A DNA stretch of 64,000 nt from an uncultured Gammaproteobacteria bacterium (GTDB lineage Bacteria > Patescibacteriota > Patescibacteriia > UBA1558 > GWA2-36-10): contig CAZWIT010000002.1 in assembly GCA_964633905.1 (NCBI GenBank), positions 63,209-127,208 on the forward strand, read 5' to 3'. Of the stretch, positions 11,079-51,725 are shown piece by piece. The position numbers were made by a program, and so were the translations under genes. The notes under the pieces were generated by a model. The model was not told the DNA's origin. It saw only the letters and a list, made by a program, of their open reading frames with translations, and did no database searches. The number at the start of each line of letters is the position of its first letter. The stretch's first letter is position 1.

Positions 11079-11480
11079 ATGAATCACAAAATATACAGCA
11101 TAATAATGGGCATAATGATGGGCCTTTCTAGCTTTGGTTTTTTTATAATTATCTTTAATTTTGATCCCAGCCAGGCTAATTGGATAGTTTTTGCCTTGTT
11201 TTATTTAACCTTATTTTTATCGTCTTTGGGTTTATTATCGTTATTAGGTTTTTGGTTAAGACGCTTATTTAGTAAGGAACGTATGCAAAATCGTTTAGCA
11301 ATTATTAATTCTTTAAGGCAGGGTTTAATCATGGCTTTAGTGGTAGTAATAGCCATGTGGTTACAATCAGCGCGTTTACTTACTTGGTGGAATACAATAC
11401 TATTGGCACTGGCGGCGGCTGCGCTGGAATTTGTTATTTTATTATTTCGACGTGACCCAGAAGAGAGTTTGCTTAAGTAG
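11079..11480 (+). CDS. small integral membrane protein, 4 predicted TM helices
   Basis: Hydrophobic segments read directly; TTGATT-17-TAAAAT promoter upstream. Confidence 0.6.
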   Translation: MNHKIYSIIMGIMMGLSSFGFFIIIFNFDPSQANWIVFALFYLTLFLSSLGLLSLLGFWLRRLFSKERMQNRLAIINSLRQGLIMALVVVIAMWLQSARLLTWWNTILLALAAAALEFVILLFRRDPEESLLK

Positions 11481-11494
11481 GATAAATTAATTTT

Positions 11495-12499
11495 ATGGAA
11501 AAAAAATTAGGTGAATTAAAAAATAATTTTTGGAAAGAAATAGAGTCAATTAAAGATTCTAGGACCTTATTTGATCTTAAAAATAAATATTTAGGACGCA
11601 AGGGTCTGCTTGCCGATACTTTAAAAGATTTAAAAGATTTAGCCGCTGAAGAAAAGCCAAAAATTGGCCAAATTGCTAATCAGTTAAAAGAAGAGCTAAC
11701 TAATGTTTTTGTAAAATTAGAAGAAAAATTTGGCGCTAGCGGAGAGAATTTAGATTTTGATCCTACTTTGCCAGGTCATTTAAGGCCAGTTGGTCATTTG
11801 CATCCTTTGACCAATATTCAAAATGAAATTGAACAAGCTTTTTTGCAAATGGGATTTACTGTTTTTGACGGACCACAACTTGAATCAGAGTATTACAACT
11901 TTACAGCTTTAAATATTCCCGAAGAACATCCGGCTCGTGATACTCAAGACACTTTTTGGTTAGATGATGGCAATCTATTGCGTACGCACACTTCTAATTT
12001 ACAAGTACGTATGTTAGAAAAATACGGTGCTCCTTTTAGAGGTATTTTTCCGGGTAGGGTATTCCGCTTCGAATCAACTGATGCTTCGCATGATCACACC
12101 TTTCATCAATTAGAGGGTTTGATGGTAGATAAAAATATTAACATTGGCAATTTAATTGCGGTAATGAAGTCATTGTTATCAGCTGTCTTTAAGACAGAGG
12201 TAACAGTGCGTTTGCGTCCTGGGTTTTTTCCTTTTGTTGAGCCTGGCTTTGAAATGGATATCAAGTGTTTAATCTGTGATGGTAAGGGCTGTTCGGTTTG
12301 TAAACAATCGGGCTGGGTAGAATTAATGCCTTGTGGCATGGTTCACCCCAAGGTATTGTCAGCCGCTGGTATTGACCCTAACGCTTATTCAGGCTTTGCT
12401 TTTGGCCTAGGTTTGACGAGACTAGTTATGATGAAGTATAGAATTAATGATATTAGATTACTTACTTCAGCTGACTTAAGATTTTTAAATCAATTTTAA
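11495..12499 (+). CDS. pheS: phenylalanine--tRNA ligase alpha subunit
   Basis: Class II motifs FRGIFPGRVFRFE and GFAFGLGLTRL. Confidence 0.96.
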   Translation: MEKKLGELKNNFWKEIESIKDSRTLFDLKNKYLGRKGLLADTLKDLKDLAAEEKPKIGQIANQLKEELTNVFVKLEEKFGASGENLDFDPTLPGHLRPVGHLHPLTNIQNEIEQAFLQMGFTVFDGPQLESEYYNFTALNIPEEHPARDTQDTFWLDDGNLLRTHTSNLQVRMLEKYGAPFRGIFPGRVFRFESTDASHDHTFHQLEGLMVDKNINIGNLIAVMKSLLSAVFKTEVTVRLRPGFFPFVEPGFEMDIKCLICDGKGCSVCKQSGWVELMPCGMVHPKVLSAAGIDPNAYSGFAFGLGLTRLVMMKYRINDIRLLTSADLRFLNQF

Positions 12500-29542: not shown

Positions 29543-31135
29543 ATGCTAATTTTTAAAAAAATGACTGTAGTGAGCCTATTTTTGCTAGCAGTTATTTTTT
29601 TGTATCCAAAAATGGCCTTGGCGCAAGATGCGTTTACTTCTGGTAATTTAGAAAATCTTTCAGTTTATACTACGCGCAGTATCTTTGACATGATTGTCGG
29701 CATTGTCAATGTGGCCTTAGGTTTTTTAGGTGCGATTACAGTTTTATTATTTTTATATGCTGGTTATTTATGGTTGACTTCACGCGGTGCTGCTGATCGT
29801 ATTGATCAAGCTAAAAAGATTATGATCAACGCTACCATTGGTTTAGGTATTATTTTTGTATCTTACGCTTTGGTCAATTTTATTTTCCGCTCAGCTTATG
29901 AAGGTATTTTTGGCGGCGGACCCGGTGGTAATAACAATTATAATCCTTCTTATAGCGGAGGAGTGTTAGGTGGAGTTTTGGAAAGTCATTATCCAGCTTG
30001 GAGTGCTACTAATATACCGCGCAATACTAATATCATTGTTACTTTTAGAGAGGCAATTGATTTAGAACAAATATTATTAAATGATAGTTGTGATCCGGTT
30101 AGCACAGATTGTGCAGTTGATCGTAATAATATTATGGTTTTTGTAGCTGGCAATGAAGATAGTAATTTAGCTAATAATGATCTCTTATTTAGAACAGATG
30201 CAGCTCACAAAAATTTTGTTTTTAATCCAGTGCCATTATTAGGTGATTCCAATGAGCCAGTTGACTATAGGGTGCAATTAAATAATTTACGTACAGAAAA
30301 TGGTTCGCCAGTATTTTCTGGCAGTAACTATTATTATTGGATTTTCTCGGTCGGTACTTGGGTAGACGAAGTGCCTCCTTATGTTGTTTCGGTTGTGCCG
30401 ATTGCTAGTACTGTAGCTCGCAACACTATTGTGCAGATTAATTTTTCGGAAAGTGTTAATCCTCTATATATACCAGCGGTATCTGACGCGGCTGCTAATA
30501 TCAGATTAAGTGATCCCAATCTAATTGATGGTGTTTTTCAATTAAGTAATCAGTATCGAACAGTTGAATTTTTAACTAATTCACAATGTGGTCAAAATTC
30601 TTGCGGCTTTAATATATTTTGTTTACCAGCTTCAGCGACTATTGATGGTATTATTATTGATGAAGTTAGGGATATGGTTGGTAATCAATTAGATGGTAAT
30701 CATGACGGTGATCATGATGTTAATGATAATTTTGATAATTGGCAATTTAACACTAACAACGATATTGATACTACTGGTCCAATTATGACTTATCGTGATC
30801 GCAGTGATGATTGGAATATTTATGCTCCGATTAGGATTAGCTTTGATAGTTCTTTATCGGCTGCTTCAGTAAATTATGACAATGTTAAATTAGATTGGAA
30901 TATTAATTATTGGTTAGGTTTGGCTTCTTATGAACCTACCTATAATAATAGTATTATGATCTACCATAATCCTATGGCAGCAAATACTGATTATAGTATT
31001 TCTTGCTTGTCTGGTATTAGGGATTTACAACAAAATTGTTATCAACCTTGTAATTGTCCCTTGGGTTCCCCAGGTTGTGGTGCAAATCCACCTATGGGCA
31101 CGCCTTGTCCGCCAGGTACTTGTTCATGGAATTAG
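29543..31135 (+). CDS. secreted/membrane-anchored protein: signal peptide plus 2-TM VirB2/TrbC-pilin-like anchor module, Gly-rich linker, Ig-like (SbsA-type) domains, Cys-rich C-terminus
   Basis: N-terminal ~100 aa paralogous to the N-terminus of the giant ORF at 31178; AXA cleavage site (ALA-QDA). Confidence 0.8.
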   Translation: MLIFKKMTVVSLFLLAVIFLYPKMALAQDAFTSGNLENLSVYTTRSIFDMIVGIVNVALGFLGAITVLLFLYAGYLWLTSRGAADRIDQAKKIMINATIGLGIIFVSYALVNFIFRSAYEGIFGGGPGGNNNYNPSYSGGVLGGVLESHYPAWSATNIPRNTNIIVTFREAIDLEQILLNDSCDPVSTDCAVDRNNIMVFVAGNEDSNLANNDLLFRTDAAHKNFVFNPVPLLGDSNEPVDYRVQLNNLRTENGSPVFSGSNYYYWIFSVGTWVDEVPPYVVSVVPIASTVARNTIVQINFSESVNPLYIPAVSDAAANIRLSDPNLIDGVFQLSNQYRTVEFLTNSQCGQNSCGFNIFCLPASATIDGIIIDEVRDMVGNQLDGNHDGDHDVNDNFDNWQFNTNNDIDTTGPIMTYRDRSDDWNIYAPIRISFDSSLSAASVNYDNVKLDWNINYWLGLASYEPTYNNSIMIYHNPMAANTDYSISCLSGIRDLQQNCYQPCNCPLGSPGCGANPPMGTPCPPGTCSWN

Positions 31136-34100: not shown

Positions 34101-37100
34101 CTGCTAATTTCTATTTAGGTAATTCTCGAGATTTTTATTCAGCACCAACTGCGAATAATTGTAATTTATGCGGTGGTAATTATAATTGGACTTGGCAATT
34201 GACTAATCCACCTAATCCAGATGCCGCTAATGTGACCGATCCATCAAATATTGGCACTAATATTGGTCATACTCGTTTGACCTCTGATTTACCAATAAAT
34301 TATGCAACTGAATTTTTATCTCCTAATTATGTAAATTTGCAATGTAATGTTAATCAGGCAATTGCGCCTAGTTTTTCACAGCCAGTAGTTTTGGCTCCAA
34401 TCTTATTGGTAGAAAATTATGGCCCACTTTGTTCAGCTTCTTGTGACAATGGCACAGTTTGGATAGATTTTAATACACAAATTGCTGCGACCTATTTAAA
34501 TAATACTTATTTTTCAATTCAAGATTGTAATAATGACGCTAGTTGTGCTAGCCCATTGGCTACAAATTTAGTAAATAATATAGCCTTACCACAAGATAGT
34601 AATTTTAGAATAACTTTGCCTCACGCTGCTTTTACTCATAATCATTATTATCGTGTTCAAGCTTTGGATACAATTAGAAATATTCACGGTTATCAATTAG
34701 ATGATACTAAGACTTGGGTTTTTGGTGTAGGCGATGCATCTTGTGAAGTGGCTAGCGTTAATTTAAATCCTAGCAATGCTACTGTGGCAATTAGTAATCA
34801 AATTGCCTATGGTGCTCAGGCTTATTCTGATCCTAATGCTTGTTATATCCATGGTCAGCCAATTGATTGTTTGGCTGCTAATAATTGTACTTGGTTATGG
34901 GCTTCTTCTAATAATACTATTGCTACTATTGAAAATAATAATAGTAGTGTGAGTAATGCTACTGGTGTGGCTGTGGGCACTACTAATATTTCAGCCAATG
35001 CTCGCCAGGCCGGCGTTGATCATATTGATAGTGGTATTTTGACAGTAGTGGAATCAATTACAACTCCAGTTGATCCGCACTTACCACCACGGGTAGAAAA
35101 TATTAGGCCACTTGATGGTGAGACTAACATTTGTCCTAATGCCGCTATTACTATGGATTTTACTGAGTTAATGGATCCAGCTAGTGTGATGGCTCATGTA
35201 AAATTGTATGCTCAGCCTGATAATTATGATGTTAATGGTGACGGTGTTGCTGATTTACAAGACGTTGCTTTAATTTCAGGGAATATTAATTTATGGGATT
35301 TGGTAGATGTTAATTATGGCGTTACGCATTTTGACAGTAATAGTGATAATATTCCAGATAAGACAACGGTAATTTTATATCCTACAAGTTTATTACGTAT
35401 TGTTAATAAAATTAATCATGTAGTGGTACAAGGCAATGTTACTAGTATTTATAATATTGCCTTAGATAGTGGACAATATAATTTTGAGGGCCAGATTCCT
35501 GATATGCCTGGTAATGATAGCTATTCTTGGCATTTTACAACGGGAGCTGACTTATGTCGTATTAGTTATATACAGACTATCCCAACTAGCGATTGGTTTT
35601 TGTGTGCCGGGGATAATTGTGGCATTACTGACGTTGAACCAGCCACGCCCGGTCATCAACATAGCTATACGGCTATTGCTAGAGATGTGCGTGGCATCGC
35701 TTTAGCAGGCTCTATTAGTTATGATTGGTCATTAAATAATGATGGTATTAATTTATTATTAAATAATGATGGTTCGCCAGCTGCTGGGGCTACACCTAAT
35801 GTTCATTTTAAAGTTGCTAATGAAAATGGACGGGAAACTTTAATTGTTAATGCTCAAGGTAGCGATGTTGGTTCGGCTAGCGCTAATATTGGTATTGATG
35901 TATTTTTATGTGAAGTACCTTGGCCTGGTCCTGGTTTGAATTTATTTCCTTGGCAGGATGATGCTTATAATTTTTCTACTTACTATTGTCCTGATGTTGA
36001 TCAAAATGACGGTATTGCTTCTTTGCCAATTTTAAATAATAATCCGATTGAAAATCCTAATCATCCAGCTAGTGTATTACGCGAGTATATTTTTTCAGTA
36101 CCAGCTCCAGTCAGCATGGATTCAGGTAATAATTTTGGTAGTTTATCTACTAGTAAATATAATCAAACAGATAGTTGGTGGTCGCATTTATTTAAAAAAG
36201 TATCTAAGCCTTGGCAGGCATTAGTAGCCAGAGGTCAGGGTATTGGCACAGACATTATTGCCTTGAGAATCATGTCCAATCTTAATCATTTATCGGTAGA
36301 GGATTGGTATGAATTAAATGCTCCTAACCCAGACATTGGGGGCACTTCTTTGGAGGTTGATGGTTATCCAGCTTTGCAAGTAGGAAATACAGTTTATATT
36401 TCAGCCTTTAATTTAGATGATGCGGGCAATGTTCGTTATACTAATATTTATATTTTAGCTTATAATATTGGCGCTAGACCAACAACAGTAGAGATTTTTA
36501 GTCAGCTACTTGATAATTTTAGATTAAATACTAATGTTGATCAGCAAAATAATATTTGCGTCGGCGGTGTAGATGCAGGCAATGTTTGTAGTAGTGATTT
36601 TGATTGTGCTGACCATAATTGTCAGTCTCAAGGCTTAAAATTACGTCGTGATTTAGTGCGTTTGGGAGACATGTTAAATATTAATAGTAAATTAATTGAG
36701 TATGGTGAAACTCACAAGGCCTGTAGTAATAATAGTTTAACAGCTTGTGTTAATAATTCTCAGTGTCCAAATGGTGGTACTTGTATTAATTATTATCCAC
36801 TGCTTAATGCTGGTACTTTTGTGCGCGGCCAATCTAATAGTTCTTGGCCTTCTTGGCAACAGACTTTGGCTACTGGTTTAAGTGGCTCTTTGCCATTGGA
36901 TCCTATTAATTTATTTAATGCTTGCGGTGATCCAGGTTTTGATCCAAATACTTGTTGGAACGAAGAAGCTTTAGAATTTTCTTGTCCAATTGGCTCTTTG
37001 ATTTATCATTATCAAAGAAGTGAAACTGGCGATGGTTATGATTTGTCGGCTAATTTTGAAAGTATTAGTAATTTTGCTACCTTATTAGATCCTATGGATA

Positions 37101-40100
37101 GTAATATTAATACTGAACTTTTATATTGTAACGCCGCTAGTGCTAACTTAATCAACCCTCGTTGTGGTAATGGTAGAATAGATTGGGTTTGTTCAAATAG
37201 AAATTATAATAATCAAACTGATTGTGAGGCTAATAGCGGAACGTGGTATGAAGAGGAATGTGACGGTGGTTATCAAGATAATCAATGTAATCCAATTTTA
37301 AGTGCTACTTATGGAGTACATACCTGGTGGAACGAACAAAGAACAGGTTGTTATCCAGCTGGTAGTATTGTAGGAGGTAATTCCGTAGAATGTACTTGGT
37401 ATGAGCCTGATGTAGCAACCATGTTTGCTCTATGCGGAGGCTATTGTGGTAATAATGCTTTAGAAAGTAATTATGAAGATTGTGAAAATATAAATGGCAA
37501 TACTAATTTTGGCGGAGTGAATTATAGTTGTGCCAATGGCATAGCGCCTACTTGTAGTCCAACTAGCTGTCAAGCTGTTTGTGGTCCTATGCAAACTCCA
37601 GCTGCAGCTTGCGGTGATGGCATTTGGACTGAATTAGTAGAAGAATGCGATGCTAGTGCTCCTAATAATGCAAATGGTTTATCGGAGTTAGATTGTACAG
37701 AAAATGGTAATGTTAGTTGTAATAACAATTGTGAAGCAGTATGTGATACGGGCGTAGCTTATGACGGTCAGTGTGGCGACGGTAATCTTAATAGTGATAT
37801 CAATCCAGTAAGTGGCGATCCTTATGAAGAATGTGATTATGGTGCTTATGCGGTGCCAAGTCCAGCTCAATCATCGCTTACTAACCCTTATACTTGTTTA
37901 CAAAATTGTACTTTTGGTTCAGATTATTGTAATGATACAATTAAACAAGGTGGTTTTGACGAGATTTGTGATACCACTTTAGCTATTAGTCCGACACCAC
38001 CAAATTCTTCTCGTTATAGTCAATATCAGTGCCGTACAGTAAATGACGCAGCTGATCCTTTGTGGACAAAATGTACACCTACAGCCGGCGGTTATTGTGG
38101 TGATGGCACTATTCAAAATGGACAAAATGGAACTTTCGCAGCTGGTGAAATTTGTGATTCTGCTTATCATCCAACTCCAGCAGAAAGCGGCCCAGAAAAT
38201 ACTTACTCTTGTAGTTATACTTGTATGACTAGGACCGGCGGTTATTGTGGCGACACTATTATACAGGATGGTAATAATGGCACTACTGATTATGGTGAAA
38301 CTTGTGATTATGCTGCTTATGCTCCGCCACTACCAGTAGATGCTGATGATATTAATCATCAATATGTTTGTAGTGATGTTTGTTTAGCTGATAGTGGTGG
38401 CTGGTGTGGTGATTCTATTTTGCAGCCTCAATTTGGCGAAGATTGTGATTATGGTAACCCATCAACTCACACTATTCCAGATCCTTGGAATAGTAATTCC
38501 AGTAATCCCTACACTTGTCCTAGTTGTTCCGTTGGTTCATATTGTGGTGATGGTGTTATTGATGTTGCCTATGGCGAGCAATGTGACGCTGGCATGACAC
38601 CACCAGCACGTAAAGTTGAATTAGCGTTTGTTTATGATATGTCGCGTAGCATGCAAACTGCAGCCGCAGCCTTGTGTGGAGTTTTGGATACTTTCTTAGA
38701 TAATTTTGATCCATCAACTACTTTTAGAGTCAGTATTTTCGTTTTAGGTGATGATGCACCAGGTTCTACTGGTAGTCCGCGCACTTTGACACCTGGTACA
38801 AGCGATGATTTAAGAGCACTGACAGATAATGGCACTTGTAGCACAGATGCTCCAGATACAGTTAGTTGTGAGCATAGAAATGTTTATAATAGCTTAGTGC
38901 GTGGTTGCACTGCGCTTTGGGATAGACATGTAGCAGAAATTGCCACTTATAGTGATAGTACTAATCTTAATAAATTTAGATTTTTAAGTTTTTATGATAA
39001 CAATGCTAGTGATCCAGCCTATAATCACATAACTGGCGGCGTAACAAATTTTACCAGTGCTGATGATCATACTAGCTTAAATGGTTGCAATGATGCAGAA
39101 CCGGGTGGTAGATTAGAGAATTGGGGTTATGCTACTGAAAAAATTATTAACAATTATCAGTGGTTAAGTGGTTATCAACGCATAGTTATACCAGTAAGTG
39201 ATGAGTATGCTTGGTGTGGTGGTGATGTAGCTATACCAACAGCAGCAGCTAATGAGAACAATTGCAATACACCAAATACTTGTTCAGGTACTCCGGCTAC
39301 TGGACAACTTGCTAGTGATGATATTATTTCTAGAATTATAAGTTCGGCTACTAATCCGGCTACAAAAGCTTTTGTTAGCCCAGTAATTTTGGCAGGTGCC
39401 GATAATCAAGCTATAGCTTTGCAAGCAGCCAATGCCACAGGTGGTTATATGAGTACGGCTGCTGATGCTAGTTCTTGGAATACGAATATTAATAATATGG
39501 TTGGTGGCGTTTTCTGTGATAGTCATCCAGCTGATGGTGTTATGGATTGTATGTTGCCTGGTGGAGCTCCACCGGCAGCAGGCTTACCAACTTTGTCATT
39601 GCCATATTATTACATATCAAGTGATAGTAATAGTAGCAATAGGAGCGTAACTATAACTCTTGGTGGTACAGCCACTTGGTGGGATGCAGTTTCAAATGAT
39701 CCAACTTGGATTACCAATGTTAGTAAATCTGGCAACACTCTTTCTTTTAGCATAGCGGCTAATACTGGTTCTGTGACCAGAACTGGCTCAATTAAACTTA
39801 CGGCCGGAGCAGCAACTGGGTCACCAATAACAGTCAATCTTAGCATTGATCAATTAGCGCCAGTGCCAGTGCCAACTTTGTCATTACCATATTATACTTT
39901 AGATAGGGACAGCTCGGCAGTCACTATTAGTGTGCCAGTGACTATTGGCGGTTCAGCTACTTGGTGGCAAGCAATTTCTAATAATACGGCTTGGATTAGT
40001 GGTATAAGTCAAGTAGGTAATACACTTTCTTTTAATATAGCTGCCAATACCGGACCGGATAGGACTGGTACAATTTCAGTTAGAGCTGGCGCGCCCACTG

Positions 40101-41878: not shown

Positions 41879-42724
41879 ATGTTTGAAGATTTAAAACAAG
41901 GTAATGGCCCCACTGGGCCGAGTGTAAATTCAATGCCAAATGCACCAAAGGCGCCGGTAGCTGATATGTTTGCGGAAGTTGATCCAAATAATAGTCCAGA
42001 CGGGCTGATTAGGCCTAGCGCGGTTCAATCAGGAAAAATTAAGCCAGTTGGCAATAATAATTGGTCAGCACCAGATGGGTCAGCAAGCAATGTTCAAGTA
42101 GACCAAATGTTAGTTGGTGATAGCCGTGGGCCAGTTAATCGTAAAATTATTGTAATGGTATCAGTAATTATCTTATTGATAGCTTTTGGAGCAGCTGCTT
42201 ATTTTATCTTTAAAGATAGAATTAATGGTGTTATTAGTAAAAATACTAATGTGACCCAAAACACTAATACTAGCAATGCTAACCTTAACAGAAATCAAAA
42301 CACTAATATTGGTAATGCCAATGTAAATACCAATGTCAATTTGAATCAAAACACTAATGTCCAAGTAAATCTAGACGATGATTCGGATGGATTAGATAAT
42401 GAAACAGAAATCAAGCTAGGCACTAATATTAGACTAGTTGATAGTGATAATGATGGTTTATCAGATTGGGATGAAGTTAAATTATATAAAACCGATCCCT
42501 TAAAGAGTGATTCAGATAATGATAAATTAATTGATGGTCAAGAACAATTAGTTTATTTTACTGATCCTTTAGTTGCTGATACTGATAAAGATGGTTATAG
42601 CGATGGCGAAGAAGTGCTCAATGGCTATAATCCCAAAGGCACTGGTAAACTAGAAAGTACCAGCACAATACCTGGCTTAATTCAAAATTTTAATACTAAT
42701 GTTAATAGTAACGTAAGTCAATAA
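41879..42724 (+). CDS. single-pass membrane protein with N/T-rich low-complexity linker and bacterial thrombospondin-type-3-like Ca-binding repeats (DxDxDG..D..E....TDP)
   Basis: DSDNDGLSDWDEVKLYKTDPLKS / DSDNDKLIDGQEQLVYFTDPLVA / DTDKDGYSDGEEVLNGYNP repeats; one TM. Confidence 0.75.
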   Translation: MFEDLKQGNGPTGPSVNSMPNAPKAPVADMFAEVDPNNSPDGLIRPSAVQSGKIKPVGNNNWSAPDGSASNVQVDQMLVGDSRGPVNRKIIVMVSVIILLIAFGAAAYFIFKDRINGVISKNTNVTQNTNTSNANLNRNQNTNIGNANVNTNVNLNQNTNVQVNLDDDSDGLDNETEIKLGTNIRLVDSDNDGLSDWDEVKLYKTDPLKSDSDNDKLIDGQEQLVYFTDPLVADTDKDGYSDGEEVLNGYNPKGTGKLESTSTIPGLIQNFNTNVNSNVSQ

Positions 42725-42727
42725 ATT

Positions 42728-43735
42728 ATGCTGTTTGACAAAAAGAAAACTGTAAATGATAAAGAGAAAAATATAAAAGAACAAGCCGAAAATGTAGTTA
42801 CTACACCAGCTATTAAAGATGAAGATGTTCATGTTATGCCAGGTAAGTTTGTAGCTTTGGCTCCTGATGTTAAAAAGAGCGGAACTAAAACCATGACTAA
42901 AGTTTTACTTTCTTTACTGTTTTTTTTGATACTGGTGGTAGGAGGAGCAGCTTGGTATATTTTGAGTAAAAAAAATCCAGTTATCGTTGCTAATCAAAAT
43001 AATAATAAAAATATTAATGCCGCTGTTAATAATCAGAACAATACCAATACTAGTAATGTAAATATGAATGTTAATGATATTATTAACAGTATAATTAATA
43101 ATACTACTACCACTAATCAAAATACTAACATTAATAGTAATGTTAATAATGTAGTAGTAGTGCCATCTGAAAATAATCAGGACAGTGACCAAGATGCTTT
43201 GACTTTTCTAGAAGAAACTTTATATAACACTAATGAAGCATTGGCTGATAGTGATAAAGATGGCTATAAAGATGGGGCAGAGTTGTTAAGTTTATACGAT
43301 CCCAGTATTGCTGGTGGGAGTTTAAGTAATTCCAACTTAATTAAAGTTTACAAAAATGATAATTTTAGTTATCAGCTTTTTGTTCCTAAAAAATGGTTAG
43401 TACAAAGTATTGATGACGGTCGTCGGCAAATCAACTTTGTGCCAGATTCGGCTACTGGCGAAACCATTGTTATTAAAGTGACAGATAACACTCAACATTC
43501 AGAACTAGCCGATTGGCAGAAGATTTTATTGCCAACTAAAACTGTAGAAAATTATCGTTTAGCTAATTATTCGGCGGTAAAAACTAGTGATGGTAAGCAA
43601 GTTTTATTTGTCAACTATGATTATGTTTTTATGATTAGCTATGATCAAGCAAGCGTTGTTAATGCTAATTTTAGTACAACTTTTGGCATGATGTTAAAGA
43701 GTTTTGCTTTAAATATTAAGGAAGTTTCCAATTAA
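42728..43735 (+). CDS. paralog of the 41879 ORF: single-pass membrane protein, N-rich low-complexity tract, TSP3-like repeats, ~150-aa C-terminal domain
   Basis: DSDKDGYKDGAELLSLYDP motif shared with upstream ORF; same architecture. Confidence 0.75.
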   Translation: MLFDKKKTVNDKEKNIKEQAENVVTTPAIKDEDVHVMPGKFVALAPDVKKSGTKTMTKVLLSLLFFLILVVGGAAWYILSKKNPVIVANQNNNKNINAAVNNQNNTNTSNVNMNVNDIINSIINNTTTTNQNTNINSNVNNVVVVPSENNQDSDQDALTFLEETLYNTNEALADSDKDGYKDGAELLSLYDPSIAGGSLSNSNLIKVYKNDNFSYQLFVPKKWLVQSIDDGRRQINFVPDSATGETIVIKVTDNTQHSELADWQKILLPTKTVENYRLANYSAVKTSDGKQVLFVNYDYVFMISYDQASVVNANFSTTFGMMLKSFALNIKEVSN

Positions 43736-43740
43736 CAATC

Positions 43741-44154
43741 ATGGCCAATTTATTAATTGTAAATAGCCGTCATTGGCACATTGATTTTAGCTGGTTAGCA
43801 AAATTGGAAGTTATTTTAAAAAAACAATTTAAGATAAAACAAGAAATTTCCATTAGCTTACTTACTCCAGCCGAAATAAAAAAGTTAAATAAAGTTTATC
43901 GACACAAAAATAAAGTAACAGATGTTTTATCATTCACTTTAGCGGATAAATTATTATTAGGTGAAGTTTTAATCTGTGTTGAGCAAGCTAAAAAGCAGGC
44001 TAAAATTAAAGGGCATAATTTAAAAAGAGAATTACAAATTTTGACAATTCATGGAATTTTACATCTTTTAGGTTATGATCACGAACGGAGCGAGGCAGAA
44101 TGGAAAAAACAAAATAAGATGGAAACGGAGATATTAAAGAAAATGATTATATGA
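43741..44154 (+). CDS. ybeY: rRNA maturation endoribonuclease YbeY
   Basis: HGILHLLGYDH zinc-binding motif; TGA stop inside the ATGA overlap with the next gene. Confidence 0.9.
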   Translation: MANLLIVNSRHWHIDFSWLAKLEVILKKQFKIKQEISISLLTPAEIKKLNKVYRHKNKVTDVLSFTLADKLLLGEVLICVEQAKKQAKIKGHNLKRELQILTIHGILHLLGYDHERSEAEWKKQNKMETEILKKMII

Positions 44155-44486
44155 GCTGGTGGCAGAGTTTTAAGCACGCTTGGCGTGGTTTAAGAATAGT
44201 ATTAAGTAGTGAAAAAAATTTTCAACGCCATCTTTTGATAGCGTTTTTAGTGATTGCTTTTGCTCTGTGGCGCGGCCTGACTCCTAGTTTATGGATCGCA
44301 TTACTGCTTACTATTGCTTTGATTTTGGCTTTAGAAATTTTTAATTCAGCTATTGAAAGATTAGTAGATATTTTAGCGCCTCGGACTCATAGTTTTGCCA
44401 AAGAAATAAAAGATTTGCTCGCTGGCATGGTGTTATTAGTTTCATTTTTTGCAGTTTTAATTGGTTTTATCATTTTTTTAATCTAG
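44151..44486 (+). CDS. dgkA: diacylglycerol/undecaprenol kinase (DgkA family)
   Basis: 3-TM small kinase, ALEIFNSAIERLVD motif; conserved ybeY-dgkA pairing. Confidence 0.85.
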   Translation: MSWWQSFKHAWRGLRIVLSSEKNFQRHLLIAFLVIAFALWRGLTPSLWIALLLTIALILALEIFNSAIERLVDILAPRTHSFAKEIKDLLAGMVLLVSFFAVLIGFIIFLI

Positions 44487-44552: not shown

Positions 44553-45800
44553 ATGGGGAAAAATAAGGATATCATTACTAGTTTGGATATTGGTAGCCAG
44601 GCGATTCGGGTGGTCATGGGACAGCGCTTGGGGGACGGGCGTTTAAAAGTTATTGGCGTAGCCGAAACTCCCGCTACTGGTATTAGTCGCGGCAGTATCA
44701 ATTCAATTGAAGATGCTGTTTCTTGTATTGCTGAATCTCTAGAAAAATGTGAAAAAATGACAGCTACCCGCATTGATAAGATTGTGGTAGGCATGTCTGG
44801 TACACATATAAAAACTGTAAATAGTCGGGGAGTGGTGGCTGTTGCTAAAGCCAATGAGACTGTAGAGGGTTCTGACATTGAGCGGGCTTTAGAAGTAGCA
44901 GAAAGCACGACCATTATGCCTAATTTTGAAGTTTTACATGTTTTACCGATTAGCTATAATTTAGATAACCAAAAAAATATCAAAGAACCACAAGGCATGA
45001 CCGGAGTTCGTTTAGAAGTAGAAACTCAAGTAGTAATGGCTATGTCGGCTCAAGTTAAGAATTTAACTAAATGTATTTATCGTACTGGTGTTGATATTGA
45101 TTATATTGTTTTTTCTATTTTAGCTACTGCTGAAGCAGTGCTTACTAATAAACAAAAAGAATTAGGAGTAGCAGTAGTAAATCTTGGCTCATCAACAACA
45201 TCGCTGGCGGTTTTTGAAGAAGGTAATATTTTGCATACGGCGGTTTTACCAGTTGGTGCTGGTCATATTACCAATGATTTGGCAATTGGCTTGAAAACTT
45301 CGGTTAGTACTGCCGAAGCAGTAAAAATTGATCATGCGCAAGCAATTTCAGAGGGAATTTCTAAACGTGATGAAGTAGATTTACATAAATATTCAGAAGA
45401 AGAAAAAAAAGGCACTTATGTTTATCGTAAGGACATTGCTACTATTGCCGAAGCCAGGGCTACTGAAATTTTTGATATGGTCAATGCCGAGCTTAAAAAA
45501 ATTGATCGAGCTGGTAAATTGCCAGCGGGTATTATTTTGACTGGCGGTGGTGCTAAGATGCCATTGATTATTGATTTAGCCAAAAGCATTTTTAATTTAC
45601 CAGTATTTTTAGGTTTGCCAGTTAATCATGATTTTCCCATTGATAAATTAAATGATCCTGAGTATACTACAGCTCTAGGCCTAGTTATTTGGGCTGATCG
45701 TAATATTGAATCAAAAACCCATTACGTACCAGGTGGGGATATTTTTAAAGATTTAGCTGGTAAGACTAAAAATATTTTTAGATCTATTTGGCCTTCCTAA
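44553..45800 (+). CDS. ftsA: cell division protein FtsA
   Basis: Actin-like ATPase fold, precedes ftsZ. Confidence 0.93.
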   Translation: MGKNKDIITSLDIGSQAIRVVMGQRLGDGRLKVIGVAETPATGISRGSINSIEDAVSCIAESLEKCEKMTATRIDKIVVGMSGTHIKTVNSRGVVAVAKANETVEGSDIERALEVAESTTIMPNFEVLHVLPISYNLDNQKNIKEPQGMTGVRLEVETQVVMAMSAQVKNLTKCIYRTGVDIDYIVFSILATAEAVLTNKQKELGVAVVNLGSSTTSLAVFEEGNILHTAVLPVGAGHITNDLAIGLKTSVSTAEAVKIDHAQAISEGISKRDEVDLHKYSEEEKKGTYVYRKDIATIAEARATEIFDMVNAELKKIDRAGKLPAGIILTGGGAKMPLIIDLAKSIFNLPVFLGLPVNHDFPIDKLNDPEYTTALGLVIWADRNIESKTHYVPGGDIFKDLAGKTKNIFRSIWPS

Positions 45801-45837: not shown

Positions 45838-47007
45838 ATGCTGAAGAAAAATTTAAAAGAAGTATTACCGCCTATTGAAACATTTGCTAACATCAAAGTT
45901 GTTGGCGTTGGTGGTTCAGGGGGCTCAGCTGTTGACCGTATGGTAACTGCTCGGATTAGAGGAGTAGAATTTATTACTGTTAACACTGACGCTCAGGCTT
46001 TGCATAGTTCACAGGCTGCTAGCCGTATTCACATTGGTCGCAATACTACTCGCGGTTTAGGAGCAGGCATGGACCCAGAATTAGGCTTAAAAAGTGCCGA
46101 AGAAAACGAACAAGATATTATGTCTGCCTTATCAGGGGCTGATATGGTTTTTATTACTTGCGGTTTAGGAGGTGGCACTGGTACTGGCGCTGCTCCAGTT
46201 ATTGCTGATATTGCTAGAGAATTAGGAGCTTTGACAGTAGCAGTTGTTACTCGTCCTTTTACTTTTGAAGGAGTGCAGCGTCGCGATATTGCCGAACGAG
46301 GCTTAGAAAGATTGCTTGATAAGGTTGATACAATTATTACCATTCCTAATGATAGATTATTGCAAATCATTGATCGAAAAACTTCTTTACTTGATGCTTT
46401 TGCTATTGTCGACGAGGTGTTAAAGCAAGGCGTGCAAGGTATTTCGGAGGTTATTACTGTGCCTGGTTTGGTCAATGTAGACTTTGCCGATGTTAAGGCT
46501 ATTATGAGACAGGCTGGCTCGGCTTTAATGGGTATTGGTAAAGCTACAGGCGAAGATAGAGCTAAAGAAGCAGCCAAAGCGGCTATTGATAGTCCACTGC
46601 TTGAACTTTCTATTAATGGTGCTACTGGTGTTTTATTTACAATTACTGGCAGTTCTAATTTAACTATGTTTGAAGTATCGGAAGCAGCTGAAGTAATAAC
46701 TGCTCATTGCGATCCAGAGGCAAAAATTATTTTTGGAGCCATAATTGACGAGTCTTTAAATGATGAGGTAAAAGTAACCGTAATTGCTACTGGTTTTAAA
46801 AAATCTGCTGAACAGAAAGTAGAAGCTAATCGTCCAGTCGGATCTTTATCAGAGGCATTTACAAAAGCGCCAGAAGAAAAAATTAATCGACGGGCTTTTG
46901 AAAAACAACCAGAGCGCGAAGAAGAGGTGGAATCAGTGCCAAAAAGCAAAGAAGAAGAAGAATTAGATATTCCGGCTTTTTTAAGGAAAAAATTAAGAGA
47001 CCGTTAA
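45838..47007 (+). CDS. ftsZ: cell division protein FtsZ
   Basis: GGGTGTG tubulin signature. Confidence 0.98.
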   Translation: MLKKNLKEVLPPIETFANIKVVGVGGSGGSAVDRMVTARIRGVEFITVNTDAQALHSSQAASRIHIGRNTTRGLGAGMDPELGLKSAEENEQDIMSALSGADMVFITCGLGGGTGTGAAPVIADIARELGALTVAVVTRPFTFEGVQRRDIAERGLERLLDKVDTIITIPNDRLLQIIDRKTSLLDAFAIVDEVLKQGVQGISEVITVPGLVNVDFADVKAIMRQAGSALMGIGKATGEDRAKEAAKAAIDSPLLELSINGATGVLFTITGSSNLTMFEVSEAAEVITAHCDPEAKIIFGAIIDESLNDEVKVTVIATGFKKSAEQKVEANRPVGSLSEAFTKAPEEKINRRAFEKQPEREEEVESVPKSKEEEELDIPAFLRKKLRDR

Positions 47008-47046: not shown

Positions 47047-47553
47047 ATGAATTGCCCAGTTTGTAATAAATTGGATACCAAGGTAGTAGACTCTCGCTTA
47101 AGTGGCGAGGGTTTTAGCATTAGACGTAGGCGTTTATGCGAATCGTGTCATTATCGTTTTTCCACTTTAGAAGAAATAGAAATTTTAGATTTGATTGTTA
47201 TTAAGCGTGATGGTCGCAGAGAAAATTATAATCGAGAAAAATTAAGTCGTGGTATTCGCACTTCTCTGGAAAAAAGGCCATATTTGGAAGAAGATTTTCA
47301 GCGTTTGATCAGAGAAATAGGTCGCGATGTGCAAAAGGCAGCTGGCTCGGAAGTGCGTTCGCAGCTTATTGGTGAAATTGTGATGAAACGTTTAAAAACT
47401 TTTGATCAAGTGGCTTATATCCGCTATGCTTCGGTATATCGCTCGTTTAAGGATGTCAAAACCTTTCAAGCAGAACTAAATCGTCTGTTGAAACAAAATA
47501 CTAATTCTAAGCGTATTAATATAAGTAAACAAAAATATGGAAGCAGAAAATAA
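47047..47553 (+). CDS. nrdR: transcriptional repressor NrdR
   Basis: Zn-ribbon CPVC...CESC plus ATP-cone. Confidence 0.93.
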   Translation: MNCPVCNKLDTKVVDSRLSGEGFSIRRRRLCESCHYRFSTLEEIEILDLIVIKRDGRRENYNREKLSRGIRTSLEKRPYLEEDFQRLIREIGRDVQKAAGSEVRSQLIGEIVMKRLKTFDQVAYIRYASVYRSFKDVKTFQAELNRLLKQNTNSKRINISKQKYGSRK

Positions 47554-47884
47554 TGCTAGTGATAATGCTACTAAAGAAAAAATAAATAATAGTCAGCAAT
47601 TGTTAGAAAGTCTAGATAGGCGTTTACATAAAATTGAGCGTAAGATGAAGATAGACTCAATTTTAGGAATTATTAAGTGGGTGATAATTGTAGTGCCAAT
47701 TGTGTTCGGAGTGATTTATCTTTCGCCGATAGTAAAACAATATTCCGTTTATTTAGAACCAGCTTTAAAATTATTACATTTAAATACCAGCCAAGAAGGT
47801 GCTCAGCTCTTAACTGATGAGCAGAAAGCCTTAATCTGTGATCCTAAACAGAGAGCAGTCTTGGTTAATCAAATTTGTAAATAA
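47537..47884 (+). CDS. hypothetical membrane protein (N-terminal coiled coil, one TM, C-terminal Cys pair)
   Basis: ORF overlaps nrdR stop (coupled); no recognised family. Confidence 0.55.
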   Translation: MEAENNASDNATKEKINNSQQLLESLDRRLHKIERKMKIDSILGIIKWVIIVVPIVFGVIYLSPIVKQYSVYLEPALKLLHLNTSQEGAQLLTDEQKALICDPKQRAVLVNQICK

Positions 47885-50252: not shown

Positions 50253-51725
50253 ATGTTTGACCATTTAGGTCCAATGCCAAAAATTAGTTTTCGGAAAAAG
50301 CCAATAAATTATCAGGCTTATTTTACTTTTCTATTAATGGCTATTATCGTCTTTACTCTTAGCTGGTCAATACAAAGTGGATCCAATATTGCCGCTGCGC
50401 CAGTAGATCAGCCACAAGTATTAGTAAGTACAGAGGCGCTTGATCAAAATATAGTTTTAGGTAGTACTAATTTGTCTATCTTTTCGATGCAAATAGAAAC
50501 TAAGCTAGCTGGAGTGGCTTTAAAATCTTTAAATATTCAAGCACAGGGTATATACAAGGCAGAATTTCTAGAAGATTTAAAATTGTCGCATAATGGTATG
50601 CAGTTAGGGCAATTGTCAGATATAGATGATCAAGGTATTTTACATTTTGATTTGGATGGCTATGTTTTGCCACTAGGTAAAAATGAATTACGATTGACAG
50701 TTAAAAATAGTGATAATTTAGAAGTTGGTGATATTTTAAATTTTAATTTAACAGATGCTAGTAGTTTAGTTTGGTCCTATGAAGGAAAAGAATATTTAGC
50801 TAGAGGCGCTTGGCCTATTTCTGGTGGCACAATAAATATTATACCCCAAGGTAGCTTGTGGGCATATCAAGGTTTAAATAAAAAAGAATTAGCAGTTGTG
50901 GCTAAGCAAAATAATAATTTAGCTGAGTTTAGTCTAGCAGTGGATGGCGAAAGAGTTGATTTGGATAAATTAACTTTTCGATACAAGACTTCTAACAATG
51001 AAGACATAGCTAGTGATTTTATTTTATTATCTCAAGGTTTAGTCCTAGCTAAGGCCCAAGCACAAGATGATTTAATAGAATTTAATTTAAATAAACCTTT
51101 ATCTTTAGCTATTAATCAGGCCTTGCCTTTTGTTTTGGCTGCTAAGTTAGGATTAGGTGATTACGAGCTAGAGCTAGAGTCTGTTCAAGGTCACGGTTTA
51201 GTTTCTGGTAAAATTATTAATTTATCTGAAAAATTGACCTTAGCTAAAGTTATCTCTAAAGAGCAGCTACTTCAATTTAGTAATTTAGCAATTGATAAAA
51301 ATATTAATCAAGATTGGCTAACAGCTGCTAATATTTCTGTCAAAAAATTAAATTCAGAAGCAGCAGTGTTACACCGTTTGACTTGGCGCTTGGATAGTAA
51401 TTTAGTGGATATCAAGGCTGCTAAAATTTTGGTTAATGATAAAGTAAAAAATTTAGATTTAGTTATAAAAGAAGATAAATTGATTGCCAAGGCTGCCTGG
51501 TCAGATCCTATTGTTTTATCAGAATTTAACACTAATATAAAATTATTGTTACAAATCGATAAATTTCAAGAAGGCTCTTTTATCCAGACTAGCTTATTAA
51601 GTGATGGTCAGGCCTATCAAGCTGATCAGTGGTCTGATAATTTACTATGGTCAGTAAATGGGCAAAAATATAATGCTTATGCTTTGCCCAGTTTGCCTTT
51701 AGAGCCACAATTAATTAGCAACTAG
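50253..51725 (+). CDS. hypothetical signal-anchored extracellular protein (490 aa)
   Basis: N-terminal TM then hydrophilic beta-rich sequence; immediately upstream of comEC. Confidence 0.65.
   Translation: MFDHLGPMPKISFRKKPINYQAYFTFLLMAIIVFTLSWSIQSGSNIAAAPVDQPQVLVSTEALDQNIVLGSTNLSIFSMQIETKLAGVALKSLNIQAQGIYKAEFLEDLKLSHNGMQLGQLSDIDDQGILHFDLDGYVLPLGKNELRLTVKNSDNLEVGDILNFNLTDASSLVWSYEGKEYLARGAWPISGGTINIIPQGSLWAYQGLNKKELAVVAKQNNNLAEFSLAVDGERVDLDKLTFRYKTSNNEDIASDFILLSQGLVLAKAQAQDDLIEFNLNKPLSLAINQALPFVLAAKLGLGDYELELESVQGHGLVSGKIINLSEKLTLAKVISKEQLLQFSNLAIDKNINQDWLTAANISVKKLNSEAAVLHRLTWRLDSNLVDIKAAKILVNDKVKNLDLVIKEDKLIAKAAWSDPIVLSEFNTNIKLLLQIDKFQEGSFIQTSLLSDGQAYQADQWSDNLLWSVNGQKYNAYALPSLPLEPQLISN

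Follow-up and report, generated by a model that had tools for sequence, protein, structure and literature searches.

A conserved pair of membrane proteins with thrombospondin type 3-like repeats lies between a giant surface protein gene and ftsA-ftsZ in Patescibacteria

What do two small membrane proteins encoded directly behind a giant surface protein do, and is the giant their partner? The question is raised by a 64,000-nucleotide stretch of contig CAZWIT010000002.1 (assembly GCA_964633905.1), here called the window, in which an open reading frame (ORF) of 3556 amino acids (aa) ends at position 41848 and is followed on the same strand by two further ORFs, P1 (41879-42724, +, 281 aa) and P2 (42728-43735, +, 335 aa). 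Spacing is tight, with 30 nt between the giant gene and P1, 3 nt between P1 and P2, and 5 nt between P2 and the next gene. A preliminary description of this DNA had taken P1 and P2 for paralogous single-pass membrane proteins with calcium-binding thrombospondin type 3 (TSP3) repeats and Asn-rich linkers, and had suggested that they form a functional unit with the giant. ORF listing bore out both genes, with the coordinates and close spacing given there, and hydrophobicity analysis agreed on one transmembrane helix per protein, the single hydrophobic segments lying at aa 84-113 of P1 and aa 53-81 of P2. Named relatives of the window proteins are Patescibacteria, among them Nomurabacteria, Komeilibacteria, Falkowbacteria, and Parcubacteria. 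We conclude that P1 and P2 are conserved paralogous bitopic envelope proteins of Patescibacteria (Parcubacteria/Paceibacteria-type lineages).

P1 matched the Pfam model TSP3_bac (PF18884) at 39.2 bits against a cut-off of 25 (E = 6.1e-10), with two stretches reported, and contains four repeats of 22 to 23 residues each, starting at aa 166, 188, 211, and 234, that follow an acidic DxDxDGxxDxxE pattern. The repeat quoted in the preliminary description, DSDNDGLSDWDEVKLYKTDP, corresponds to aa 188-207 of P1. Asp/Glu ligand positions within the repeats were invariant among 18 orthologs, and a comparison of the P1 profile with the PDB returned the Ca-binding region of a staphylococcal biofilm-associated surface protein (7c7r, E = 5e-7) as well as lanmodulin. 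The TSP3 assignment thus held for P1 but failed in the same search for P2, which gave no match to TSP3_bac even at E <= 1 (nor did P0153, a second member of the P2 family) and which carries two degenerate repeats, starting at aa 152 and 174. The P2 repeat pair aligned with P1 repeats 3-4 in BLASTP (43% identity over 60 aa, E = 3e-9), the P2-family profile matched, over the repeat positions, proteins bearing 24 Pfam TSP3_bac stretches, and residues D152, D154, D156, D174, D176, and D178 were invariant across the family. Because of this homology to the P1 repeats and these profile and transitive matches, we regard the P2 repeats as TSP3 derived but below the Pfam threshold. By analogy with thrombospondin type 3 repeats, those of both P1 and P2 would be expected to bind Ca2+.

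The C-terminal part of P2 (aa 198-333), overlooked in the preliminary description, is a globular domain that no Pfam or NCBIfam model matched and for which the family profile gave no PDB match at the sequence level. An AlphaFold2 (AF2) model of P2 built from 14 family sequences was confident over aa 200-330, with a predicted local distance difference test (pLDDT) score of 80 to 94, and a Foldseek search of the PDB with this head returned PsbP (1v2b, E = 5e-6), Mog1, BT_1490, Tsi3, and the DUF1795 chaperones EagT6 and SciW. The modeled domain is an alpha-beta-alpha sandwich whose superposition on PsbP or Mog1 scores as structurally significant, and several bacterial members of this fold are extracytoplasmic binding modules. 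We conclude from the model that the C-terminal domain of P2 is predicted to have a PsbP/Mog1p-like fold.

Profile-profile comparison with hhalign joined the P1 and P2 families with a probability of 99.8% (E = 1.2e-29), such that the paralogy proposed earlier stands at the level of family profiles; the window P1 and P2 themselves share only about 60 alignable residues. The window P1 is without a globular head, and a P2-like C-terminal domain is kept in some P1 orthologs (P0042, P0056, and P0058; loci L007, L008, L029, and L030). Moreover, two P1-like TSP3 genes precede P2 in L056, L060-L064, L066, and L071. A word-indexed search with a broad P2 profile gave 18 matches only, swamped by low-complexity candidates, and was followed by an exhaustive profile search in which more than 100 of the top 150 representatives were full-length proteins of 300 to 600 aa with E < 1e-60. 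At E <= 1e-30, the P2 profile found 1,263 representatives, a count that includes multi-repeat TSP3 proteins. We conclude that P1 and P2 are, as judged from their profiles, paralogs and that the pair has been repeatedly duplicated and trimmed among relatives.

Two irregular forms of P2 may be recorded here. P0014 and P0015 carry an insert of about 150 residues, seemingly beta-rich, that replaces part of the low-complexity linker, and in L008 and L029 (~11116-12355) the P2 ortholog is split into ORFs of 154 and 288 aa, which could reflect a frameshift, a pseudogene, or an assembly error.

Gene order was compared across 106 related loci plus the window, which were annotated with custom hidden Markov models (HMMs) and housekeeping probes and held 63 distinct P2-family genes. 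The order found was a giant with a pilin-like anchor, one or two P1-like genes, P2, YbeY and diacylglycerol kinase (DAGK) where present, FtsA, and FtsZ. A small TSP3 protein was encoded immediately upstream of P2 on the same strand in 48 of 52 cases, a large same-strand ORF lay within four genes upstream in 35 of 44 (most of the nine misses being truncated contigs), and YbeY or DAGK came next downstream in 50 of 56. Giant orthologs upstream of P1 measured 1900-3300 aa, and the order of giant, P1, and P2 held in every locus with enough upstream DNA; co-localization with a giant surface protein gene, from which the preliminary description had argued, was therefore general among relatives whose upstream DNA was available, and the outcome that would have refuted that description, homologs never found beside such genes, did not occur. 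That description had overlooked that the pair also abuts ybeY-dgkA-ftsA-ftsZ. Adjacency to the giant gene is constant, as a functional unit would have it, but adjacency to ybeY-dgkA-ftsA-ftsZ is equally constant, so co-location is insufficient evidence for such a unit. Because the pair sits at a fixed junction between the giant gene and ybeY-dgkA-ftsA-ftsZ, synteny alone assigns no partner.

One group of loci departs from this order. In the Falkowbacteria-type loci L012, L013, L068, and L074, the large surface proteins, P1, and P2 are kept, and ybeY and ftsAZ are absent; the order there is RelA (-), a 1785-aa pilin-TIG protein, a 1252-aa protein, P1, P2, and ClpP (-). As a separate observation, YbeY is absent from L007, L008, and L029.

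The giant consists of a signal peptide and a pilin-like hairpin followed by TIG, Big_5, BACON, fn3, and Cys-rich repeat regions. Its Pfam scores were 53 bits for fn3, 50.4 for BACON, 46.4 for TIG, 30.1 for Big_5, and 23.0 for the type IV secretion system (T4SS) model T4SS_pilin (cut-off 26.6), and its hydrophobic segments lie at aa 1-25, 43-76, and 88-116. Directly upstream of the giant gene is a second pilin-like gene (29543-31135), missed in the preliminary description, whose 530-aa product scored 44.4 bits for Big_5 and 25.9 bits for T4SS_pilin (cut-off 26.6) and has hydrophobic segments at aa 1-27, 46-79, and 93-115, with the hairpin present. Its orthologs hold the same position in L001, L006-L008, and L027-L030, and orthologs of the pilin-like proteins matched PF18895 in L007, L008, L012, and L031. 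This gene is the first of a conserved surface-protein cassette and is the reason why the cassette comprises four genes and not three. No gene for T4SS machinery (VirB4, VirB6) turned up in those window ORFs that were compared with Pfam.

The giant shares a domain with P2. The HMM of the P2 C-terminal domain matched an internal region of several giant orthologs, and when 26 giant-ortholog segments were compared by hhalign with the P2 C-domain alignment, they matched with a probability of 97.7% (E = 1.8e-12, score 78.5, 86 columns), a score that 30 column shuffles and the reversed alignment, at 8-17, did not approach. A reciprocal HMM built from the giant segment matched P2-family C-domains (E = 1e-9 and 2e-8) as well as 33 of the 37 ORFs of at least 1400 aa. 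In L012, the protein encoded just before P1 carries the PsbP-like segment at its aa 56-232 (E = 8e-33). We conclude from these profile comparisons that the giant holds an internal homolog of the P2 PsbP-like domain.

The remainder of the giant offers two observations of its own. Seven Cys-rich repeats of the form CGDG...E.CD occupy aa 1996-2470 (~37163-38587); they have no Pfam match, and aa 2000-2500 contain 42 Cys residues versus 4-15 per 500 aa elsewhere. Just after this region (~38600-38700), VELAFVYDMSRSM resembles by eye the metal ion-dependent adhesion site motif (DxSxS) of von Willebrand A-type domains, and Pfam VWA was not reported.

Evolutionary rates set the pair apart from the genes downstream. 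Compared with the closest relative (L016), identity was 99% for FtsA, 98% for FtsZ, 91% for YbeY, 93% for DAGK, 90% for both P1 and P2, and 75% for the giant. Where FtsA and FtsZ were 70-86% identical, P1 was 35-44%, P2 28-42%, the giant 31-39%, and the pilin-Big_5 protein 39-47% identical, and YbeY and DAGK at the same distance were 54-74% identical. We conclude that P1 and P2 evolve like surface proteins, unlike their housekeeping neighbors.

We tentatively favor a reading, to which we assign somewhat less than an even chance, in which P1 and P2 are membrane-anchored, putative accessory subunits of a surface structure built from the 530-aa Big_5 protein and the 3556-aa giant. The link to the giant is favored because of the Falkowbacteria-type loci, the shared PsbP-like domain, and the similar evolutionary rates. 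On this account, the proteins would be oriented N-in and C-out, with the N-terminal tail in the cytoplasm, where its conserved motifs would dock a cytoplasmic partner. The transmembrane helix would anchor each protein, the low-complexity spacer would cross the cell wall, and the TSP3 repeats would bind Ca2+ and stiffen or bridge the stalk. Finally, the PsbP-like head might bind the giant, or else a ligand that the giant's own copy also binds, and thereby tether or organize the giant at the cell surface.

Several results weigh against this assignment to the giant. FtsA is encoded at most three genes beyond P2 in 45 of 45 cases, an association at least as strict as that with the giant, and P2 directly precedes ftsA in two loci that lack ybeY and dgkA (L057 and L098). 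From the LCP gene through comEC, these genomes keep the same gene order, and adjacency within this region may represent inherited order rather than functional coupling. As to the shared domain, the P2 C-domain HMM found the window giant with a weak score of 8 bits (aa 1692-1785), the homology extends over no more than about 86 columns, and the AF2 model obtained for the giant segment from a single sequence was unusable (mean pLDDT 42.5), its secondary-structure order alone being compatible with the P2 domain. The charges flanking the transmembrane helices of P1 and P2 do not decide topology. Lastly, a promoter and terminator scan gave 85 promoter-like sites, where 75 +/- 8.6 would be expected, and placed no terminator between the genes; it was uninformative on operon structure.

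The strict neighborhood of ftsA gives rise to a second reading, in which P1 and P2 are bitopic proteins associated with division or envelope growth, their N-terminal peptides binding FtsA/FtsZ, their ectodomains acting on the septal wall, and their adjacency to the giant being inherited. The N-terminal tails, presumably cytoplasmic, contain conserved motifs in both proteins that the preliminary description did not mention. Ahead of its transmembrane helix, the P1 tail carries MFEDLK, ADMFAEVDP, and RPSAVQSGKIKPV; among 18 orthologs of 30-67% identity, M1, F2, D29, and F31 were invariant and P46, A48, and G52 nearly so, and the ortholog alignment reads as an invariant MF start, then (D/E)D(M/I)FxxVD, then KPSAVQSGKIKPV before the helix. 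An MF(D/E/N/Q) start was present in 37 of 46 P1-like proteins. The P2 tail has a motif of the form VHxMPxKF that is common to its orthologs, with M37, P38, K40, and F41 invariant or nearly so, and a relaxed version of VHVMPGKF occurred in 36 of the 59 ORFs of the P2 family, a set that includes N-terminally truncated members. A regular-expression search limited to two motifs (the P2 VHxMPxKF type and P1 PSAVQSG) found them in P2 and P1 themselves only.

Strict conservation of these motifs while the ectodomain diverges is what a division role would lead one to expect, as are the constant presence of FtsA, the frequent presence of YbeY or DAGK, and the direct contact of P2 with ftsA in the two loci named above. 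In Escherichia coli, a short cytoplasmic peptide of the bitopic protein FtsN binds FtsA, and FtsN consists of a short N-terminal tail and a transmembrane helix, joined by a long low-complexity linker to a globular domain at the C terminus. P1 and P2 resemble it in having a short tail with a conserved peptide, a transmembrane helix, a low-complexity linker, and genes near ftsA and ftsZ, and P2 also in its C-terminal globular domain. They differ from FtsN in lacking a SPOR domain or sequence similarity, in evolving fast, and in being unlinked from ftsAZ in Falkowbacteria-type loci. More generally, those loci split the pair from ftsAZ and not from the large surface proteins, P1 and P2 change far faster than FtsA and FtsZ and at the rate of surface proteins, the P2 domain is common to the giant, and neither Pfam nor NCBIfam detected a SPOR, POTRA, or other divisome-type domain in either protein. 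Searches of the literature on FtsZ, FtsA, and the divisome of Patescibacteria found nothing relevant to the pair. We consider a division role, the main rival of the favored reading, unlikely.

Inherited order is central to a third reading as well, in which P1 and P2 are general structural proteins of the envelope, namely, spacers anchored in the membrane and bridged by Ca2+ that lie in the wall or S-layer space of an ultra-small monoderm cell, with no specific partner among their neighbors and with a synteny frozen in reduced genomes. Consistent with this idea, a long block from signal peptidase and HisRS through comEC is collinear in all relatives, PsbP/Mog1p-like domains occur in many stand-alone envelope proteins (LpqN, Apa, MTC28, and DcrB), and the P2 family is very large. 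The domain shared with the giant and the adjacency kept in Falkowbacteria-type loci argue instead for a specific link, and conservation of the N-terminal motifs suggests that they serve a binding partner of their own. We regard this structural role, too, as rather improbable.

A further reading would combine two of the above, with P1 and P2 as transmembrane couplers whose ectodomains hold the giant, taken as a host-contact protein, by way of the PsbP-like domain and the Ca-dependent repeats, and whose N-terminal peptides dock FtsA or FtsZ, encoded three genes downstream. We think such coupling quite doubtful. If true, it would mean that the attachment apparatus of an ultra-small episymbiont is physically linked to the division machinery, and it would account for the lasting adjacency of the giant gene, the pair, and ftsAZ across a large radiation.

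The Asn-rich linkers reported in the preliminary description were readily recovered. Asn makes up 42% of each (P1 aa 120-164, P2 aa 87-150) versus 6.3% of the plus-strand ORFs of the window, and the two linkers are the most Asn-rich 40-residue stretches in the window, with 18 of 40 residues versus at most 10 of 40 elsewhere. Across relatives, the linker Asn fraction has a median of 0.15-0.19; Asn-richness was accordingly rejected as a conserved functional feature, being lineage specific, and it probably reflects low G+C content. Within the family, linkers are between 27 and 209 aa long. We conclude that the conserved property of the linker is that of a low-complexity spacer of variable length.

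Two ORFs run antisense to this region, at 42173-42364 (-, 63 aa) and 42914-43192 (-, 92 aa), and are rich in Ile, Asn, and Ser. They are almost certainly reverse-strand readings of the Asn-codon tracts and not genes.

The repeats underlying the linkers had been called slip-prone in the preliminary description and had been proposed to mediate length or phase variation, which would make P1 and P2 contingency genes whose Asn/Thr-codon repeats switch by replication slippage. Such repeats as there are proved imperfect and nontandem. Tandem Repeats Finder (TRF) reported, within both genes, units of period 12 in about 2.2-2.3 copies with 80-87% match, plus a 6-nt unit in 3.7 copies. The longest exact direct repeat is 15 nt, in two copies 51 nt apart in the P1 spacer DNA, which also contains a 39-nt unit duplicated at 74% identity. 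Neither of two repeat tools reported a homopolymer or short-unit tract within 41879-43735, a search that did not extend to the intergenic DNA on the 5' side of P1. Among relatives at 90-97% identity, every indel keeps the reading frame, spans 1-4 codons, and falls within a linker; for P1, indels in relatives at 90-92% identity are confined to the spacer at aa 120-164, and for P2, close relatives show one single-codon indel in the spacer at aa 87-150.

These small indels, and the spread of linker lengths across the family, are what length variation would produce. Against contingency switching stand the absence of perfect tandem arrays (about 2.2 copies of period 12, 81-87% match, by TRF), the separation of the two copies of the longest exact repeat, and the lack of a homopolymer or short-unit tract in the interval searched. 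Moreover, the repeat periods are all multiples of three, and slippage would therefore not turn expression off. We consider a role as phase- or length-variable contingency genes very unlikely for P1 and P2, and we conclude that the Asn-rich tracts are spacers drifting in length by in-frame indels, not on/off switches.

The favored reading, that of accessory subunits for the giant, has its nearest functional precedent in Myxococcus. In TraB, TSP3 repeats join a membrane anchor to another domain, and TraB is the partner of TraA, a large Cys-rich surface receptor encoded adjacently (PMC12045341). The arrangement of P1 and P2 with the giant may resemble that of TSP3-bearing TraB with the Cys-rich polymorphic receptor TraA: P1 has acidic DxDxDGxxDxxE repeats with a period of 22-23 that score above the Pfam threshold, and the giant has Cys-rich CGDG...E.CD repeats, which recall the Cys-rich stalk described for TraA. 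Unlike TraB, neither P1 nor P2 has an OmpA domain (PF00691), beta-barrel, or lipoprotein signal in Pfam and NCBIfam searches; they are anchored by one helix in the inner membrane of what is presumably a monoderm cell, and the P2 repeats lie below the Pfam threshold. Scores against the NCBIfam models of the gliding adhesin CglD (27 bits, cut-off 400) and MtsD (14.5 bits, cut-off 800) indicate similarity at the level of repeats only, and OmpA-TSP3 proteins in the homolog search were likewise partial, repeat-only matches covering 19-41% of the query.

Other components have separate precedents. PsbP/Mog1p-like envelope proteins, such as cyanobacterial PsbP, mycobacterial LpqN/Apa/MTC28, DcrB, BT_1490, and the type VI secretion system Eag/SciW chaperones, share 3-16% sequence identity with the P2 head. 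They differ in that the P2 head is joined to a low-complexity stalk with TSP3-like repeats and has a homolog embedded in the giant. Arrays of 2-11 genes with VirB2-like pilin domains have been described in 383 assemblies of Patescibacteria (PMC12102498), and the 530-aa and giant genes resemble them in standing in tandem and in encoding a hairpin of putative PF18895/PF04956 type; here, by contrast, the hairpin would be the N-terminal anchor of multidomain proteins of 530 and 3556 aa. The pilin-related content of that account describes no TSP3 or PsbP-like partner genes. In cultured Paceibacteria, proteins with T4SS-pilin domains belong to the most highly expressed of the secreted proteins whose function is unknown (PMC10936435). 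Within the literature on TSP3, surface proteins, or adhesins of Patescibacteria, neither the TSP3/PsbP-like pair nor the shared domain was found described.

Much of bacterial diversity belongs to the Patescibacteria, which seemingly live attached to other cells, and almost nothing is known of their surface machinery outside Saccharibacteria. The present analysis defines a conserved four-gene cassette, consisting of two large proteins with putative pilin-hairpin anchors and two bitopic TSP3/PsbP-like proteins, whose members are candidates for how giant surface proteins are anchored and organized in these cells. It also identifies a large P2-like family for which Pfam and NCBIfam have no model, and a domain common to the small partner and the giant. 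A link to FtsA, if true, would bear on the coordination of attachment and division in minimal cells; if not, the analysis still annotates genes that are mostly labeled "hypothetical protein" or left unnamed in the source records of relatives.

The window as a whole has a G+C content of about 35%, with nearly all genes on one strand. Housekeeping genes identified by Pfam flank the cassette upstream (ATP synthase, PheRS, GyrB, NusG, ribosomal protein L1, Der, an LCP protein, signal peptidase, HisRS, and YqeY) and downstream (YbeY, DAGK, FtsA, FtsZ, NrdR, HtrA, a release factor, ComEC, EF-G, and EF-Tu). Coordinates of the features discussed are collected in Table 1.

Table 1. Positions in the window of the surface-protein cassette, its parts, and the genes that follow
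Feature	Position	Strand	Basis
Pilin-like gene, 530 aa: signal peptide, VirB2/TrbC-like two-helix hairpin, Big_5	29543-31135	+	Pfam, hydrophobicity, orthologs
Giant surface protein, 3556 aa	31178-41848	+	ORF, Pfam, hydrophobicity, orthologs
Giant internal segment, aa ~1689-1786, homologous to C-terminal 2/3 of P2 PsbP-like domain	36242-36535	+	hhalign
P1, 281-aa bitopic membrane protein with four TSP3-type repeats	41879-42724	+	ORF, Pfam, alignment
P1 N-terminal tail, aa 1-83, presumably cytoplasmic	41879-42127	+	Ortholog conservation
P1 transmembrane segment, aa 84-113	42128-42217	+	Kyte-Doolittle 19-residue window maximum 2.74
P1 Asn-rich low-complexity spacer, aa 120-164	42236-42370	+	19/45 residues Asn
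P1 four TSP3-type repeats of Ca-binding type, aa 166-256	42374-42646	+	Pfam TSP3_bac, 39.2 bits
P2, 335-aa bitopic membrane protein	42728-43735	+	ORF, family profile, AF2, Foldseek
P2 N-terminal motif VHVMPGKF, aa 34-41, presumably cytoplasmic	42827-42850	+	Family conservation
P2 transmembrane segment, aa 53-81	42884-42970	+	Hydrophobicity; helix aa 55-80 in AF2 model
P2 Asn-rich low-complexity spacer, aa 87-150	42986-43177	+	27/64 residues Asn; pLDDT <50
P2 two degenerate TSP3-like repeats, aa 152-196	43181-43315	+	Homology to P1 repeats 3-4; invariant Asp
P2 C-terminal domain, predicted PsbP/Mog1p-like, aa 198-333	43319-43726	+	AF2 model and Foldseek
YbeY	43741-44154	+	Pfam
DAGK (dgkA)	44151-44486	+	Pfam
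FtsA	44553-45800	+	Pfam
FtsZ	45838-47007	+	Pfam

Some further features of the window and of related loci were noted in passing. A 115-aa ORF after NrdR (47537-47884) has no Pfam match and recurs at the same position in nearly all related loci. Likewise without a Pfam match is a 490-aa ORF between the release-factor gene and comEC (50253-51725), which is conserved in relatives, with counterparts of about 494 aa that also lack a Pfam entry in L001, L004, and L009. The release-factor gene of L007 (16013-18571) was called as 852 aa versus about 360 aa elsewhere and may be a fusion or the result of a missed stop codon. Finally, the third-party metagenome-assembled genome records of L016, L021, L022, L025, L027, and L029 are titled "uncultured Gammaproteobacteria bacterium" and have a gene order of the Patescibacteria type; their Gammaproteobacteria labels look wrong.

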